IMG/VR virus record: IMGVR_UViG_2534681999_000005
DNA from: a virus
Taxonomy: Duplodnaviria; Heunggongvirae; Uroviricota; Caudoviricetes
Direction: 5' to 3' (one strand)
DNA length: 4,265 nucleotides
The translations under genes and the position numbers were made by a program. The notes below the pieces were generated by a model. The model was not told where the DNA came from and ran no database searches. It saw only the letters and a program-made list of their open reading frames with translations. Positions 1-4,265 of this stretch are shown here, in pieces; position 1 is the stretch's first letter, and each line of letters opens with the position of its first letter.

Positions 1-599
1 GGAACGTGAAAACGGATTTATCAGCAACGGAAACGGCCTGGAAGCTGTGGGAACTTATGGGGGAGGTGTATTCGAACCGCTGGACCCAGAAGAACGGGGC
101 TGCGCCGTCGAAGCTCTGGATTGCTCAGATTGGCGCGATGACTGAACAGCAAATCCGGCAGGTCTGCCGTCAGTGCATGGACCGCTGCCGGGCGGGTGAA
201 ACGTGGCCTCCGGATCTGGCTGAGTTTGTGGCGTTGATTTCGGAGAGCGGGGCAAATCCATTTGGCCTGACGGTGGATGCCGTGATGGAGGAGTACCGTC
301 GCTGGAGGAATGAATCCTGGCGGTACGACGGGAGTGATAAATACCCGTGGCCACAGCCGGTGCTGTACCACATTTGCCTCGAGATGCGTGACAGAGGGAT
401 TGAGCGGCAGATGACGGAAGGTGAGTTAAAACGACTTGCAGAACGGCAACTGACGAAATGGGCAAAGCAAGTTGGTAACGGGATGAGTATTCCCCCGATC
501 CGGAGACAACTCGCATCGCCGAAGTGCCCGCAAGGGCCAACGCCAATTGAATTACTGAAACAGGAATACGAGCGCCGGAAGGCGGCTGGTTTTGTTTGA
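1..599 (+). CDS. Replication protein P-like (lambda P family helicase loader), 3' portion; probably 5'-truncated by the window edge
   Basis: Seen: the ORF is open to base 3 in frame, with the first in-window start a GTG at 6, and the TGA stop at 597-599. From memory: the C-terminal half (YPW...TEGELKRLAERQL...GNGMSIPPIRRQLASP) matches the pattern of lambda P (YPW...TDAELRRKAADEL...NRGEAIPEPVKQLP). Lambda P has roughly 35-40 more N-terminal residues, hence the likely truncation. Not verified by search. Confidence 0.7.
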   Translation, partial: NVKTDLSATETAWKLWELMGEVYSNRWTQKNGAAPSKLWIAQIGAMTEQQIRQVCRQCMDRCRAGETWPPDLAEFVALISESGANPFGLTVDAVMEEYRRWRNESWRYDGSDKYPWPQPVLYHICLEMRDRGIERQMTEGELKRLAERQLTKWAKQVGNGMSIPPIRRQLASPKCPQGPTPIELLKQEYERRKAAGFV

Positions 600-632
600 A
601 TCTGAGAAACGATTTTGTCGGAGGAAATTTTA

Positions 633-1349
633 ATGGAAACCGTATCTGACGCACTGAAAGCACTGAAAAGAGCCTCTTCACATGTGGTGGCAGCTCGCCT
701 TGGAATTAGTCGTGAAGAGGCTGTCAACGAACTGTGGAAACTGAAACGCCGTGGAGAAGCGGATAACAAGGGGGCGATATGGTGGCTGACTCAGGCTGGT
801 GAAAGTGAACCGGTGTCACCGGTACCGAAAGTGACGGCGCAAATGCTGACAGAGGCGATTGAACAACATGGCCCACAAACGGCGGATGAACTGGCATTGA
901 TGTTCGGAATTACCTCCCGCCGGGCGAATTCATCGCTGGCAATGGCAATCAGCAAAGGGTGTCTGATTCGCGTGAATCAGGATGGTAAATTTCGTTACTG
1001 CATACCGGGCGTTGATTTACCGGCAGAGCCGAAAGCAGCATCCGTAGCTGAAACGGAGGGTAAAGCCCTTCCTCAGCCAGCTGGTGTTGCGTTACCAGTC
1101 CAGGAAACGGCTGCACAGGAAGAAATTAAAACAGAAGCGGTGGAGGACATTGTGAAGTTGCAGCAATCGTTCACTGAAGCGAAAGCAGATGACCTGATTC
1201 TACCATCGCTGCATGTGGCTAACCGCGAGCTGCGCCGGGCGAAAAGTAATGTTCAGAAGTGGGAGCGAGTCTGTGCTGCGCTACGGGAACTGAACAAACA
1301 CAGGGATATTCTCCGGGATATTACCGCCACCAGAGAGCAGCAGCGGTGA
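633..1349 (+). CDS. Hypothetical prophage protein (238 aa) with two winged-helix-like segments and an acidic coiled-coil-like C-terminal half
   Basis: Seen: ATG at 633 preceded by GGAGG (620-624) at 8-nt spacing; the TTG at 615 from the ORF track has no SD. TGA stop at 1347-1349. HTH-like segments: [24 protein letters not shown] and [32 protein letters not shown]. Family not recognised with certainty. Confidence 0.6.
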
Positions 1350-1663
1350 GTGGCTGGAAGAAGTGGCGCTGGGCTGAAATCCTGATACTCCGGCAGTGTG
1401 CGGGAACGATGAGAGTCGAAAGCATCGGTTATCTGATTGGCCGTAGTGAGTCAGCCGTCAGGACGAAAGCGCGGGAACTGGGTATCAGCATGATGTTACG
1501 GGGTGATTATCACCAGTCAGCCAAATGTTCACAGCGTGATATTGAGCTGGCGTGGCAACTGCATCAGCGTGGTGTACCCCGACGGGAAATTGCCGAAAAG
1601 TTTGGGATGAAGTTGGGCGCAGTGAATAACTACGTTTATTTCGACAGGAGGGTTCAGGAGTGA
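1346..1663 (+). CDS. Small DNA-binding protein (105 aa) with two tandem GcrA-like HTH repeats
   Basis: Seen: GTG start at 1346 overlaps the upstream TGA stop (GTGA), suggesting translational coupling. The ORF-track ATG at 1259 would overlap the upstream gene by 91 nt and has no SD; the ATG at 1409 would cut off the first repeat. Repeats: W-x2-W-x2-E...[17 protein letters not shown] and [27 protein letters not shown], resembling the GcrA N-terminal HTH pattern (from memory). Start is uncertain between 1346 and 1409. Confidence 0.5.
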
Positions 1664-1962
1664 GGGTGAGGGTTTATATCGCCGGTCCGATGACGGGATA
1701 TGAAAATTTTAACCGCGAGGCATTTCACAAAACGGAAGAGGTGCTGAAACGGGAAGGGCATACCGTTTTAAACCCGGCAGTACTTCCGGACGGGCTGACT
1801 CAGCCACACTACATGGATATTTGCATGGCAATGCTCCGTTGCGTGGATGCGGTTTACATGCTGAAAGGCTGGCAGCAGTCGGCAGGTGCAGGGGCTGAGC
1901 TGGCACTGGAGGAGAAACCGGGCCATGCGGTGATTTTTCAGGAGGTGGGCAGTGAATATTGA
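1660..1962 (+). CDS. DUF4406-like protein (nucleoside 2-deoxyribosyltransferase-like fold), 100 aa
   Basis: Seen: GTG at 1660 overlaps the upstream TGA (GTGA), with AGGAGG-like sequence 8-14 nt upstream. The N-terminal motif VYIAGPMTGY, followed by NPA...and GW.QS.GA..E, matches what I recall of the DUF4406 / N-deoxyribosyltransferase-like family common in enterobacterial prophages. Not search-verified. Confidence 0.65.
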   Translation: MRVRVYIAGPMTGYENFNREAFHKTEEVLKREGHTVLNPAVLPDGLTQPHYMDICMAMLRCVDAVYMLKGWQQSAGAGAELALEEKPGHAVIFQEVGSEY

Positions 1963-2269
1963 CCCGGCGATAACGATTGATATGGCCCTGAACGCCGGCC
2001 TGGCACTTCTTGGTTATTTCTACATTATGTTCTGCAGCGGACGATGGCTGTCACTGTTGTTCATGAAAAAATGGAATAAACGCCGTAAGCAGGAGCAACG
2101 CCAGAAGGCAATGGATGCATTTTTCGAAGCCTTCGGAATTGACGGCATGGAACCAGGGGATCCAGCTCGCGCAATCAGCAGAGGGGGTGTAGTAATCCTT
2201 GTATATCGGAGTGAAGAGAAAAATGACGATCACAAAACAACGTGTAGAAGAAATCATATCCCGCATTGA
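1952..2269 (+). CDS. Small membrane-anchored protein (105 aa): one hydrophobic helix followed by a basic/charged region
   Basis: Seen: GTG at 1952 with GGAGG (1941-1945) 6 nt upstream; it overlaps the preceding gene's end by 11 nt. Hydrophobic segment ALNAGLALLGYFYIMFCSGRWLSLLF, then KKWNKRRKQEQRQK. The 3' end overlaps the next gene by about 47 nt and that tail looks low-quality, so the gene's reality and extent are uncertain. An alternative start is the ATG at 1982. Confidence 0.4.
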   Translation: MNIDPAITIDMALNAGLALLGYFYIMFCSGRWLSLLFMKKWNKRRKQEQRQKAMDAFFEAFGIDGMEPGDPARAISRGGVVILVYRSEEKNDDHKTTCRRNHIPH

Positions 2270-2540
2270 AATGTATGGACATGGTGCAGGGTATATCGCA
2301 GACGAGGTTAATGATCTGGCTATACTGGCGCTGAATTTATCAAATATCGCGAACCTGAAGCGATACGAGCTTGATATGGGAGGTTGCGACTCGTGCGGTC
2401 AGGATTGTGGCGCTGATATGACTGAAGATCCTGATGGTGATTATGTCCTGTTTGATGACGTGGTTAAGTTGTTTGAATTTGATACAACCACTCAAAAGTT
2501 AGAAATCCCGGCAAAGGAGGCAGCCAGTGGGCAAGATTGA
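2223..2540 (+). CDS. Hypothetical acidic protein (105 aa) with a Cys cluster (CDSCGQDCG)
   Basis: Seen: ATG at 2223 with GGAG/GAAGAG purine-rich sequence upstream; TGA stop at 2538-2540. In-frame alternatives are TTG 2199, GTG 2211 and ATG 2271. 2223 is preferred because the resulting N-terminus (MTITKQR...YGHG) parallels the N-terminus of the 185-aa protein at 3160. Confidence 0.5.
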   Translation: MTITKQRVEEIISRIEMYGHGAGYIADEVNDLAILALNLSNIANLKRYELDMGGCDSCGQDCGADMTEDPDGDYVLFDDVVKLFEFDTTTQKLEIPAKEAASGQD

Positions 2541-2964
2541 CTATCAGGCACTGCGTGAGGCAGCACAAAACTATCAATCGACGCTGGCGTGGTATCAGGC
2601 TACCCCGGACAGCCCAAATGCTGAACGGGATTGTGATGCGGCTCTTGCTGCGTTTAAGCGTCACATCCGTCATCGGGAAGCGGATATTATCGCTGATTTG
2701 CTGGATGGACTGGAAGAAGCAAAATCACAACTCAACGAGCAGCGTGAGTATTACGAAGGCGTTATCTCTGATGGGAGCAAGCGTATTGCTGAACTGGAAG
2801 CGCGGGAAGTTCAATTACCGACTCGCTACGACCTTCGATATGGACACCCGATAAATGCAGATGAGCGACATGTCATGATACCTAAAGAAAATGGCAGTTG
2901 GCTTTACCTGATTGACCTAGAACACGCATTACGCGTCGCTGGCATTCGCATCAAAGGAGAGTGA
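2527..2964 (+). CDS. Ead/Ea22-like prophage protein (145 aa)
   Basis: Seen: GTG at 2527 preceded by AAGGAGG (2514-2520) at 6-nt spacing; it overlaps the upstream gene by 14 nt. From memory: N-terminal IDYQALREAA and the C-terminal block SQLNEQREYYEGVISDGSKRIAELE...AGIRIKGE closely match phage lambda Ea22 (KSKLNEQREYYEGVISDGSKRIAKLE...AGIRIKGE). Confidence 0.75.
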   Translation: MGKIDYQALREAAQNYQSTLAWYQATPDSPNAERDCDAALAAFKRHIRHREADIIADLLDGLEEAKSQLNEQREYYEGVISDGSKRIAELEAREVQLPTRYDLRYGHPINADERHVMIPKENGSWLYLIDLEHALRVAGIRIKGE

Positions 2965-2965
2965 G

Positions 2966-3157
2966 ATGAACGGACAAATATCAATTGTTCGACCAGGAGC
3001 ATGTGACGATCGCGAAATACGAATGATTATTCGTCTGGCGATGGGGAAAACAATAACTGCTCTCATTACTCCAGAAAATCTCGCATTAGCATTAACAGGA
3101 AAGTCAGACATGCCAGTAGAGCTAAAGCTGCGAAATGTTGAGATTAAGGTGAAATAG
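2966..3157 (+). CDS. Hypothetical small protein (63 aa)
   Basis: Seen: ATG at 2966, one nt after the upstream TGA, with GGAGAG 6 nt upstream; TAG stop at 3155-3157. No recognisable family. Confidence 0.5.
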   Translation: MNGQISIVRPGACDDREIRMIIRLAMGKTITALITPENLALALTGKSDMPVELKLRNVEIKVK

Positions 3158-3159
3158 CT

Positions 3160-3717
3160 ATGACCACTATTACCAAAGATCGACTGCTGACAATCCAGCA
3201 TTGGCGCGAAACATACGGACCGGGTAGCAACGTTGTGCTTCCAGCAGAAGAAGCGGAAGAGCTGGCACGGATTGCGCTGGCATCACTGGCAGCAGTATCG
3301 GATGAACGAGCAGCCTATGAATTATTTATGGAGAAGCGTTTCGGAGAATCTGTAGATCGCCGCAGAGCAAAAAATGGCGATAGAGATTACATGGTATGGG
3401 ATATGGCGCTTGGCTGGATTATCTGGTGTCACCGCGCCGCCATGCTTCAGGCTGGAAACTTTCGGGAAAATAAGGGTTCGTCAACCAATAATTTTCGGAT
3501 AATCTCGGAAACGTCAACCAACTCTCCGGCAATCCCTGATGAGGTGTTGTCCGCAATCCTGAAGGTCGCCAGGCTTCGTGCAGATTTCGATGCTTCTGAA
3601 GTGGACAGGCGAGGTATCGGTAGTTGTCTGGATGAGGCCGAGCAAGAACTTATCGTTACCATTAACGAATACGCCAGTCAGATCGCAGTAGAAGCGACAC
3701 AGGGGGAGAACCAATGA
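3160..3717 (+). CDS. Hypothetical prophage protein (185 aa)
   Basis: Seen: ATG at 3160 with AGGTG (3147-3151) 8 nt upstream; TGA stop at 3715-3717. The N-terminus MTTITKDRLLTIQHWRETYGPG resembles that of the 2223 gene. No family recognised. Confidence 0.6.
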   Translation: MTTITKDRLLTIQHWRETYGPGSNVVLPAEEAEELARIALASLAAVSDERAAYELFMEKRFGESVDRRRAKNGDRDYMVWDMALGWIIWCHRAAMLQAGNFRENKGSSTNNFRIISETSTNSPAIPDEVLSAILKVARLRADFDASEVDRRGIGSCLDEAEQELIVTINEYASQIAVEATQGENQ

Positions 3718-3791
3718 GCCGGCCAGATGCATTTGCAGGCGTTGCTATAGCTATTGCTTTTCTAGTATATGTTATTTGTCGGTGGGGGTAA
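3714..3791 (+). CDS. Tiny hydrophobic peptide ORF (25 aa: MSRPDAFAGVAIAIAFLVYVICRWG), putative small membrane protein
   Basis: Seen: ATG at 3714 overlaps the upstream TGA (ATGA); strong SD AGGGGGAG (3701-3708) about 5 nt upstream; TAA stop at 3789-3791. The peptide is almost entirely hydrophobic. Translated by hand; below the ORF-track length cutoff. Confidence 0.35.
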   Translation: MSRPDAFAGVAIAIAFLVYVICRWG

Positions 3792-3826
3792 AAACGTTCG
3801 CCGGGATTCACACCAAGGGAGGGAAT

Positions 3827-3931
3827 ATGTCGGATGATATTTCACTGGTAATGGAAGGCGCTCTGGCTGTTATTGCTGTTGTGGGTGTTTACTGCCTGGT
3901 TGTGTTTTTGATGGAGCGCCTGGGGAACTGA
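3827..3931 (+). CDS. Tiny single-TM peptide ORF (34 aa: MSDDISLVMEGALAVIAVVGVYCLVVFLMERLGN)
   Basis: Seen: ATG at 3827 preceded by AAGGGAGGG (3816-3824) with about 2-5 nt spacing depending on where the SD core is placed; TGA stop at 3929-3931. Acidic N-terminus, about 20-residue hydrophobic core, charged C-terminus. Translated by hand. Confidence 0.4.
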   Translation: MSDDISLVMEGALAVIAVVGVYCLVVFLMERLGN

Positions 3932-3938
3932 ATTCATT

Positions 3939-3961
3939 CCGTATGGGAATTCCCATATCGG
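3939..3961. repeat. Imperfect 23-bp palindrome centred on the perfect 10-bp palindrome GGGAATTCCC (3945-3954); candidate hairpin or protein-binding site
   Basis: Seen: CCGTATGGGAATTCCCATATCGG is the reverse complement of itself apart from one indel. It lies 8 nt after the stop of the 34-aa ORF. No downstream U-tract, so it is not a canonical intrinsic terminator. Confidence 0.4.
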
Positions 3962-3970
3962 GCAAAACGG

Positions 3971-3999
3971 TTTGCTGTAAAGCGAGAGTTAAGTAGAAT
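3971..3999 (+). promoter_or_regulatory. Candidate sigma70 promoter for the hok/mok transcript
   Basis: Seen: -35-like TTTGCT (3971-3976), 17-bp spacer, -10-like TAGAAT (3994-3999). Predicted transcript start near 4006, about 110 nt upstream of the mok-like ATG. Match by eye only. Confidence 0.3.
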
Positions 4000-4017
4000 T
4001 GCTGCGGGTGCTTGAGG

Positions 4018-4053
4018 CTGTCTGCCTCGGGCATGCCACCGTAAGGCAGACAG
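4018..4053 (+). other. Stem-loop in the hok leader: perfect 10-bp stem with a 16-nt loop
   Basis: Seen: CTGTCTGCCT (4018-4027) is the exact reverse complement of AGGCAGACAG (4044-4053). No U-tract follows on either strand, so this is a structural RNA element rather than a terminator. Confidence 0.45.
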
Positions 4054-4059
4054 AGAAAA

Positions 4060-4126
4060 GCCCCAGTTAACATTACGCGTCCTGCAAGACGCTTAACATT
4101 AATCTGAGGCCCAATCTATGCTTCAC
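4060..4126 (-). ncRNA. sok: Candidate Sok-like antisense RNA, antitoxin of the type I hok system (boundaries approximate)
   Basis: Inference from established hok/sok organisation: Sok is a roughly 60-70 nt antisense RNA covering the mok translation-initiation region. A promoter-like element on the minus strand would start transcription near 4125, opposite the mok-like ATG at 4118. No canonical terminator was identified, so the 3' end is a guess. Confidence 0.3.
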
Positions 4127-4265
4127 AAACGTAGGTTAGCCTCTTACGCGCCGAAAGGCAAGGAGAAGCAGGCTATGAAGCAGCAAAAGGCGATGTTAAT
4201 CGCCCTGATCGTCATCTGTTTAACCGTCATAGTGACGGCACTGGTAACGAGGAAAGACCTCTGCG
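4118..4265 (+). CDS. mok: mok-like in-frame upstream start giving a 19-codon N-terminal extension of hok (MLHKRRLASYAPKGKEKQA-MKQQK...); partial
   Basis: Seen: ATG at 4118 is in frame with the hok ATG at 4175, with no intervening stop, and GAGG lies 8 nt upstream. From memory: this resembles the in-frame MokC extension of chromosomal hokC (ML...KVKEKRAMKQHK). Confidence 0.4.
   Translation, partial: MLHKRRLASYAPKGKEKQAMKQQKAMLIALIVICLTVIVTALVTRKDLC
4133..4161 (-). promoter_or_regulatory. Candidate sigma70 promoter for the Sok-like antisense RNA
   Basis: Seen on the minus strand: -35-like TTGCCT (complement of 4156-4161), 17-bp spacer, -10-like TAACCT (complement of 4133-4138). The most conserved -10 positions (TA...T) are present. 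Confidence 0.3.
4175..4265 (+). CDS. hok: Hok/Gef-family type I toxin (HokD/RelF- or HokC-like), first 30 codons; 3'-truncated by the window edge
   Basis: Seen: ATG at 4175 with AAGGAG (4160-4165) 9 nt upstream. Translation MKQQKAMLIALIVICLTVIVTALVTRKDLC matches, from memory, the N-terminus of E. coli HokD/RelF and is very close to HokC/Gef (MKQHKAMIVALIVICITAVVAALVTRKDLC). The ORF runs off the window. Confidence 0.85.
   Translation, partial: MKQQKAMLIALIVICLTVIVTALVTRKDLC

Follow-up and report, generated by a model that had tools for sequence, protein, structure and literature searches.

Two conserved small genes for single-helix membrane peptides upstream of hok in Escherichia coli prophages

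Two small open reading frames between early genes and hok/sok

The stretch of DNA analysed here (the window; 4,265 nucleotides (nt) of the IMG/VR virus record IMGVR_UViG_2534681999_000005) reads as the early-right region, with replication and nin-like genes, of an E. coli O157-type lambdoid prophage, and its sequence is identical to NZ_AP018488.1 and to many other O157 chromosomes. It contains two tiny open reading frames (ORFs), ORF1 and ORF2, directly upstream of a hok/sok locus, and we conclude that both are genuine, separately translated and conserved genes for single-helix membrane peptides of E. coli prophages. A sequence-only reading of the window had proposed two ORFs of 25 and 34 codons, each preceded by a Shine-Dalgarno (SD) site, and both are indeed present. 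ORF1 (3714–3791, plus strand) starts with ATG and encodes the 25 amino acids (aa) MSRPDAFAGVAIAIAFLVYVICRWG. Its SD, AGGGGGAG (3701–3708, plus strand), ends 5 nt before the ATG and lies inside the last codons of an upstream gene of 185 aa (3160–3717), whose TGA stop overlaps the ORF1 start as ATGA, as had also been noted. ORF2 (3827–3931, plus strand) likewise starts with ATG and encodes MSDDISLVMEGALAVIAVVGVYCLVVFLMERLGN, a peptide with a single helix and an acidic N-terminus; its SD, AAGGGAGGG, occupies 3815–3823 on the plus strand, one base further right than had been implied. The view that both ORFs had been missed holds for ORF1, which is not annotated in the RefSeq records inspected, but not for ORF2, which RefSeq already carries as WP_001278460.1 ("hypothetical protein").

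Among the 44 ORFs of at least 20 aa (counted from the first Met, in all six frames of the window), ORF1, ORF2 and Hok are the top three in hydrophobicity, with best 17-residue Kyte-Doolittle means of 2.66, 2.95 and 3.22, respectively, and a single hydrophobic segment of helix length dominates each of the two small peptides, as the sequence-only reading had stated. By RefSeq annotation the pair sits in the early region, 5' of DUF968-RusA-Q. We count ORF1 and ORF2 among the accessory genes that lambdoid prophages carry after the replication/nin-type early genes and before hok/sok.

Of 5426 complete E. coli genomes, 677 carry the ORF1+ORF2 module; the copy number per carrier has a median of 2 and reaches 5. 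Most of these copies are >90% identical, and plain identity is therefore uninformative for coding status. In a set of 124 loci anchored on the ORF2 start and retrieved without reference to ORF1 (the IMG/VR loci retrieved by the ORF2-start pattern number 120), full-length ORF1 was kept in 111 and the 34-codon ORF2 in 120, while for both ORFs the remaining frames were all interrupted by stops. The intact pairing of ORF1 and ORF2 is far beyond chance.

ORF1 belongs to a family of 27-aa phage peptides

Judged by alignment, the window ORF1 is most simply read as a variant of a 27-aa phage peptide family that carries a two-codon in-frame deletion and the substitution W3R. The two forms differ by 6 nt, in frame, and are homologous along their full length; the window copy retains the P-D-A-F, the G and the terminal LVYVICRWG-stop of the family, and is atypical in its 25 codons and in the R for W3. 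The 25-aa variant is itself conserved: it occurs in 26 loci of IMG/VR and, at ≥95% identity, in 372 records of E. coli. The family, collected by tblastn and with a degenerate DNA pattern, has the consensus MTWPEAFTTVGIAMAVALVVYSICRWG and the motif MxWP[E/D]AF-x3-G-…-VYSICRWG, and its members are found in 93–95 phage records. Although the degenerate pattern included neither the 27-codon length nor the ATGA, 203 of 213 pattern matches consist of ATG and exactly 27 codons, and 208 of 213 start as ATGA on the stop of an upstream gene. Conservation of W3, P4, A6, F7, C24, R25 and W26 is partly imposed by the search pattern; in the tblastn matches, which are free of this bias, C24 can vary (F in VT1-Sakai), as can W3, and these members keep WP(E/D)AF, G11, Y21 and RWG.

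An SD with at least 5/6 matches to AGGAGG precedes the ORF in 137 of 139 unique family contexts, and the upstream genes that supply it are of at least four unrelated kinds (DUF551/EaA-type and three others). SD and ATGA thus form a portable unit that couples ORF1 translation to whichever early gene precedes it. Across 65 family haplotypes the entropy by codon position is 0.31/0.25/0.73 and the median ratio of nonsynonymous to synonymous substitution rates (dN/dS) is 0.195, and the two other sense frames are interrupted by stops in 65/65 and 64/65 haplotypes; the ORF1 family is under purifying selection. The sequence-only reading had named frame conservation and the synonymous pattern among tblastn homologues as a check on coding, and the outcome (dN/dS ~0.2, third-position-biased changes, in-frame indels) favours it.

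The gene is unannotated in all seven of the phages 933W, Min27, Stx2 II, VT1-Sakai, ArgO145, vB_EcoS-666R9 and Av-05, the last a member of the Vequintavirinae; VT2-Sakai and BP-4795 were also matched by tblastn. In 933W it lies in the distal left-arm region near hokW, and in Av-05 it takes up precisely the 82 nt left free between neighbors in a dense array of early genes. In Min27 (L146, 1178–1750), Stx2 II (L269, 701–1450) and POCJ13 (L268, 1206–1334), "hypothetical proteins" are annotated on the opposite strand across the 27-codon ORF. These look like mis-annotations, because the coding signal sits on the other strand.

Searches of Pfam, PHROG and PADLOC gave no significant match for the family. 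No ORF1 homologue was found in the K-12 cryptic prophages Rac, Qin and DLP12 (e14 was not among them), and K-12 small-protein data sets are therefore uninformative. Literature searches returned no match for the ORF1 and ORF2 peptide strings or accession numbers, and neither peptide is present in the supplements of PMC4765031 and PMC11188072. The ORF1 family is a new, widespread and previously unannotated small-protein family; the ORF2 annotation and published evidence of its translation were already known. A conserved 27-codon gene is hereby documented in reference Shiga-toxin phages (933W, Min27, Stx2 II and VT1-Sakai, with a match in VT2-Sakai as well) and in a Vequintavirinae phage, which is useful for the annotation of Shiga-toxin phages. 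Phage accessory regions are a reservoir of small membrane proteins, a class that is systematically overlooked.

ORF2 is conserved and translated

The SD sequence A(A/G)GGAGGGAATATG of ORF2 persists in L064 and L276 too, the loci that diverge most, where the remaining spacer differs in sequence and in length. Variable columns of ORF2 by codon position number 6/7/18 of 30, with dN/dS of 0.16–0.4. Diversity is low overall, and the divergent L064 and L276 give dN of 0.11–0.20 versus dS of 0.50–0.72. ORF2 is under purifying selection.

The family is small. Among 1.84 billion representative proteins, searched exhaustively with HMMER, there were six close ORF2 clusters only and no remote relatives. 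Protein-pattern and DNA-pattern scans of the GTDB species-representative genomes gave only chance matches, all in unrelated phyla. As these representatives lack the ORF2 module, it is specific to E. coli prophages. Against a phage collection, megablast found no match, and sensitive blastn found only the segment with the palindrome described below, in PPompW phages, where ORF2 is truncated. A scan of metagenomes for the L064-like ORF2 variant yielded one contig, L276. ORF2 thus represents a young, narrow family confined to E. coli prophages. A divergent relative of 29–30 aa, unannotated and with a GTG start, lies upstream of hok in mEp460_ev081 (L277, 1197–1289) and in HannyBb (L281). It is 50% identical to ORF2 (79% positives), lacks the acidic N-terminus, is preceded by an SD of AGGAGG or GGAG, and ends 42 nt before the 5' motif of the hok mRNA.

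Ribosome profiling, which the sequence-only reading had also suggested, is available in published form for a paralogue of ORF2. This paralogue is XECs145 of E. coli O157:H7 Sakai. Hücker et al. (2017, PMC5597208) described it as an intergenic ORF that is translated, with, in LB, 79.1 reads per kilobase per million (RPKM) for RNA, a footprint RPKM of 346.1, a ribosome coverage value of 4.35 and a coverage of 0.99 (PMC5597208, S2 Table). It was classed as "real" and predicted to be an inner-membrane protein with one helix; the study suggested no function for it and made no mention of ORF1 or of the linkage to hok (PMC5597208). XECs145 corresponds to ECs_5710 of prophage Sp6, now annotated in NC_002695.2, and differs from ORF2 by 2 aa. 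The published frame begins 57 nt too far upstream: the true product is the 34-aa form, because its SD and ATG are the conserved ones. The boundaries of this published ORF are corrected accordingly.

A proposed role as membrane modulators

Hydropathy and charge analysis places acidic residues in the N-flanks and Arg in the C-flanks of both peptides, and on this basis both are predicted to be single-pass inner-membrane peptides with the N-terminus out and the C-terminus in (N-out/C-in). Each helix also carries small-residue motifs, G11/A13/A15/A17 in ORF1 and G11/A14/A17/G20 in ORF2. We infer from these features how the peptides might act. They would be made with the phage early transcripts, ORF2 also in lysogens, and would insert into the inner membrane, where they would pack helix against helix with a larger membrane protein through their small-residue ridges. 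In this they would resemble modulators such as AcrZ, MgtS or KdpF, or else the small exclusion proteins of phages, rather than type I toxins that form pores. The sequence-only reading had listed modulators of a membrane complex as the third of its options, and it is this option that becomes our best guess: with a confidence only slightly above even, we favor early-expressed, membrane-embedded peptides that modulate a larger membrane protein.

AcrZ, MgtS, MgrB, KdpF, CydX and PmrR are single-helix inner-membrane peptides of 25–50 aa that bind a larger membrane protein, and genes of the AcrZ/MgtS type are short ORFs with good ribosome-binding sites that are often missed by annotation. Those are chromosomal core genes, however, whereas ORF1 and ORF2 are phage-encoded and mobile, and have neither homology to them nor a co-encoded complex. 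The moron and exclusion proteins of phages, such as HK97 gp15, P22 SieA and T4 Imm, are membrane-located, ~80–160 aa long and often have two or more helices. ORF1 and ORF2 share with this group a place in the accessory slots of temperate phages, where expression from the prophage is possible, and footprints on ORF2 occur in uninduced lysogens. They differ from it in that the known examples are larger, and in that no promoter/terminator pair of its own was found for ORF1 or ORF2.

Several points weigh against this interpretation. Transmembrane helices of every sort commonly carry small-xxx-small motifs. Among the known type I toxins, several are peptides just as featureless, so that even without homology a high dose could damage the membrane. 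Decayed copies of ORF1 also exist: in Shigella phage POCJ13 (L268, 1201–1284) the W3 codon has changed from TGG to TAG with the rest intact, which is recent decay, L098 carries a frameshift, and in 8 loci W26 is replaced by a stop. The function is therefore dispensable in prophages. As to translation, the XECs145 interval spans, besides the ORF2 paralogue, the spacer and the last 19 nt of ORF1 including its stop codon, and its footprints may include reads shared among paralogous prophage copies. The cut-off of the Sakai study was 30 aa, above the size of ORF1, and its translation data thus cover the ORF2 paralogue only (PMC5597208).

The peptides provide two short, tractable candidates for the study of phage-host membrane interaction, including a possible interaction with the adjacent Hok toxin. 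The finding is not conceptually surprising unless the link to Hok discussed below proves functional.

Alternative explanations

The sequence-only reading had judged the size and composition of the peptides typical of small membrane proteins and of type I toxins (the TisB, Ldr, ShoB and Hok classes), with holin-like peptides as a further option. On such an account the peptides, type I-toxin-like, holin-like or acting in host shutoff, would depolarize or permeabilize the inner membrane upon expression of the early operon. We regard this as unlikely. The type I toxins of E. coli (Hok/Gef, TisB, LdrD, ShoB, IbsC, DinQ) are peptides of 19–52 aa with one hydrophobic helix and are often borne on prophages or plasmids. 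The size (25 and 34 aa, within the ~20–60 aa typical of the class), the single hydrophobic helix and the prophage location of ORF1 and ORF2 fit this class, both adjoin hok, a known membrane toxin, and lie directly upstream of a true hok/sok locus, and the presence of ORF1 in the early-gene array of Av-05, which belongs to a lytic subfamily, would suit host takeover.

The features that define type I systems were, however, not found. In Rfam searches of the window no antisense or regulatory RNA was detected besides the hok leader/sok. On the minus strand, a promoter-like site (3792 to 3764; TTTACC-17-TATACT, 9/12 matches) does lie opposite the 3' part of ORF1. The search for antisense promoters that the sequence-only reading had suggested thus revealed no feature of the ORF1 family, as this site occurs in 18 of 101 unique ORF1 contexts, all in the ORF2-bearing lineage. 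No sense-strand promoter-like site was found in 3400–3830, and there is no structured or processed leader; the mRNA fold of 3685–3975 is unremarkable (z = −0.40), with no sequestered ribosome-binding site, and the ribosome-binding sites are strong and exposed. Searching Pfam with hmmscan gave no Hok/Gef (PF01848) match for ORF2 or the 25-aa ORF1 at E up to 1, nor for the 27-aa variants at E up to 10, and no meaningful match for the peptides emerged from Pfam, PHROGs, NCBIfam or PADLOC. ORF1 is translationally coupled through its ATGA to ordinary early genes, the copy number in carriers reaches 5 (median 2), and the ORF2 paralogue is translated, at a footprint RPKM of 346, in exponentially growing cells (PMC5597208). 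The charge layout is also the opposite of that of Hok, with its Lys-rich N-terminus, in contrast to the acidic N-tail and predicted N-out/C-in orientation of ORF1 and ORF2. For a holin-like role there is the further difficulty that the genes lie upstream of Q, outside the lysis cassette downstream of it.

A different relation to hok would be that ORF1 and ORF2 are protein-level partners of Hok-family toxins, which neutralize or gate Hok. The linkage to hok is real. The claim that the ORFs lie directly upstream of hok was confirmed, with the Rfam sok model matching from 4006 on at 116 bits, and the adjacency recurs: hok is found within 450 nt in 82 of 139 unique ORF1 contexts (neither hok nor ORF2 in 52 of 139), and ORF2 or its 29–30-aa relative always adjoins the hok promoter or what remains of it. 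The hok promoter of 933W follows immediately on the ORF1 stop (…AGATAAAAACGGTTTGC…), whereas in the window ~175 base pairs (bp) with ORF2 and the palindrome stand between two AAAACG(G)TT repeats; ORF2 thus looks like a cassette that was either inserted between ORF1 and hok or deleted from there. Also in line with a partnership are the predicted orientation of the peptides, antiparallel to the Hok helix, the presence of ORF1 in Av-05, and the occurrence of other small membrane ORFs before hok. With such peptides, a phage that bears hok/sok, or that enters a host with hok, could still complete its lytic cycle, and a counter-defence or immunity peptide would be added to a type I toxin-antitoxin system. 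We nevertheless consider the partnership improbable. The 933W-like clones are oversampled among the contexts, and the association may equally reflect hitch-hiking in a hot spot for accessory genes, inflated by these clones.

It is also conceivable that only the act of translating ORF1 matters, the peptide having no function of its own. As a mini-cistron for coupling or insulation, ORF1 would then hold ribosomes at the 3' end of the early transcript or adjust how much transcription reads through into the hok promoter. Nothing in the family is indeed as constant as the ATGA overlap and the portable SD, the ORF1 stop of 933W abuts the hok promoter, and in ArgO145 and vB_EcoS-666R9 a terminator-like G+C-rich hairpin with a T-run is seen by eye within ~25 nt of ORF1. 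The peptide sequence and its exact length are, however, conserved across very different DNA (dN/dS 0.195), which is unexpected for a pure spacer cistron, and the downstream contexts are heterogeneous, with hok in 82 of the 139 unique contexts and not in the rest. We therefore give this explanation very little weight.

Still less credible, in our view, is that the two ORFs are halves of a single two-helix gene of 72–74 aa, either a pseudogene frameshifted in a G-run or a gene read by programmed −1 frameshifting on G GGG UAA. It arises from a protein search in which several database proteins of 70–74 aa turned out to be ORF1-linker-ORF2 fusions (P0008 and P0009, of 74 aa, are exact fusions; P0005 and P0006 are others). 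ORF1 ends in a G5 run (3784–3788) followed by the TAA stop and an A-run (3782–3796 in all, plus strand), where one added G fuses ORF1 to ORF2, and a −1 slip on the GGG at 3786–3788 would yield exactly the fusion sequence. AlphaFold2 modelled a natural fusion as two helices, but these are generic, with a predicted local distance difference test (pLDDT) score of 68. Against a single gene, all 120 IMG/VR loci have split ORFs with G5, and the G6 alleles of L004, L005 and L006 are those that encode 74-aa fusions; L065, from the sister lineage of the fused L004, has G5, and the L004 fusion is therefore derived. In the divergent L064 and L276, ORF1 ends TGG-TTA-TAA without any G-run. The spacer between the ORFs measures 33 nt in L276, 34 nt in L064 and L071 and 35 nt in the window, so that all three relative phases occur and the reading phase is not conserved. 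ORF1 is also found without ORF2 (L141–145 and 93–95 phage records), with its stop at the same codon in ~90 phages, ORF2-like genes without ORF1 exist as well, and each half keeps its own SD and is under purifying selection. G-run length, spacer length and divergent homologues thus largely refute both versions of the single-gene explanation; the 74-aa fusions are rare, derived one-base homopolymer indels and not the ancestral form, and the "74-aa proteins" of the databases are to be read as frameshift fusions. The homopolymer runs at the ORF1 stop vary among loci (G5A4, G5A5, G6A5), and L005 and L006 combine G6 with two substitutions that lengthen the A-run to 7.

Finally, that these are chance open frames, conserved through a function at the DNA or RNA level or through recent common ancestry of the prophage copies, is hardly tenable: the near-identity (>90%) of most E. 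coli copies and the position of ORF1 below the size threshold of gene callers would fit it, but divergent copies of both ORFs show third-position-biased substitution, in-frame indels only and fixed stop positions next to a spacer that takes indels freely, the RNA fold is not unusual, and ribosome footprints cover the XECs145 interval that contains the ORF2 paralogue (PMC5597208).

Palindrome, hok promoter and neighboring genes

Between the ORF2 stop and the hok promoter lies a perfect 16-bp palindrome, TATGGGAATTCCCATA (3942–3957, no strand). It is kept, with at most 2 mismatches (in L276), in every ORF2-bearing locus inspected and in the PPompW phages with a truncated ORF2. Its hairpin has a folding energy of −14.5 kcal/mol (z = −2.4) and no U-tract, and therefore it does not look like a terminator; binding of a protein or processing of the RNA could take place there. 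The putative hok promoter follows at 3971–3999 on the plus strand (−35 TTTGCT/TTGCTG; −10 TAGAAT at 3994–3999), assigned because it lies just 5' of the hok mRNA 5' end and because a homologous site, TTGGCG-17-TAGAAT, occurs in L277. The hok/sok/mok locus itself, a neighbor of the small ORFs and not part of them, extends on the plus strand from 4006 to 4265, where it runs off the window, with the mok ATG at 4118 and the hok ATG at 4175. Its identity is given by the Rfam hok leader/sok model (RF01794) at 4006–4180, and RefSeq annotates hokD.

What follows ORF2 can differ. In one lineage (L004, L005 and L065) a degraded hok promoter remnant comes next, and then a convergent, ibrAB-like operon of two genes that replaces hok; one product has 214 aa, and the other has 408 aa and contains PAPS_reduct and DUF3440 domains. 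In L064 (7600–8040, minus strand) ORF1, ORF2, the palindrome and the hok promoter are intact, but the hok leader is broken after ~105 nt and joined to what appears, from a DLFCGAGG motif read by eye, to be a gene for a DNA cytosine methyltransferase. Other, non-homologous small membrane ORFs were seen directly 5' of hok/sok in two unrelated phages, vB_EcoS-640R1 (L279, ~760–940) and the P1-like MH422554 (L282, ~750–1020); one of the two encodes 59 aa with two hydrophobic segments behind a strong SD, the other ~80 aa. A membrane-protein gene just 5' of hok may thus be a recurrent arrangement.

On the upstream side, at least eight early genes are packed into 6–3717 with overlaps of 4 nt or more, or with gaps of 1–2 nt. 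This tight packing suggests a long chain of translational coupling, which ORF1 extends. One gene in this region (1952–2269) encodes a 105-aa product with a hydrophobic segment at its N-terminus, and its counterpart in L004 is annotated as DUF4752.

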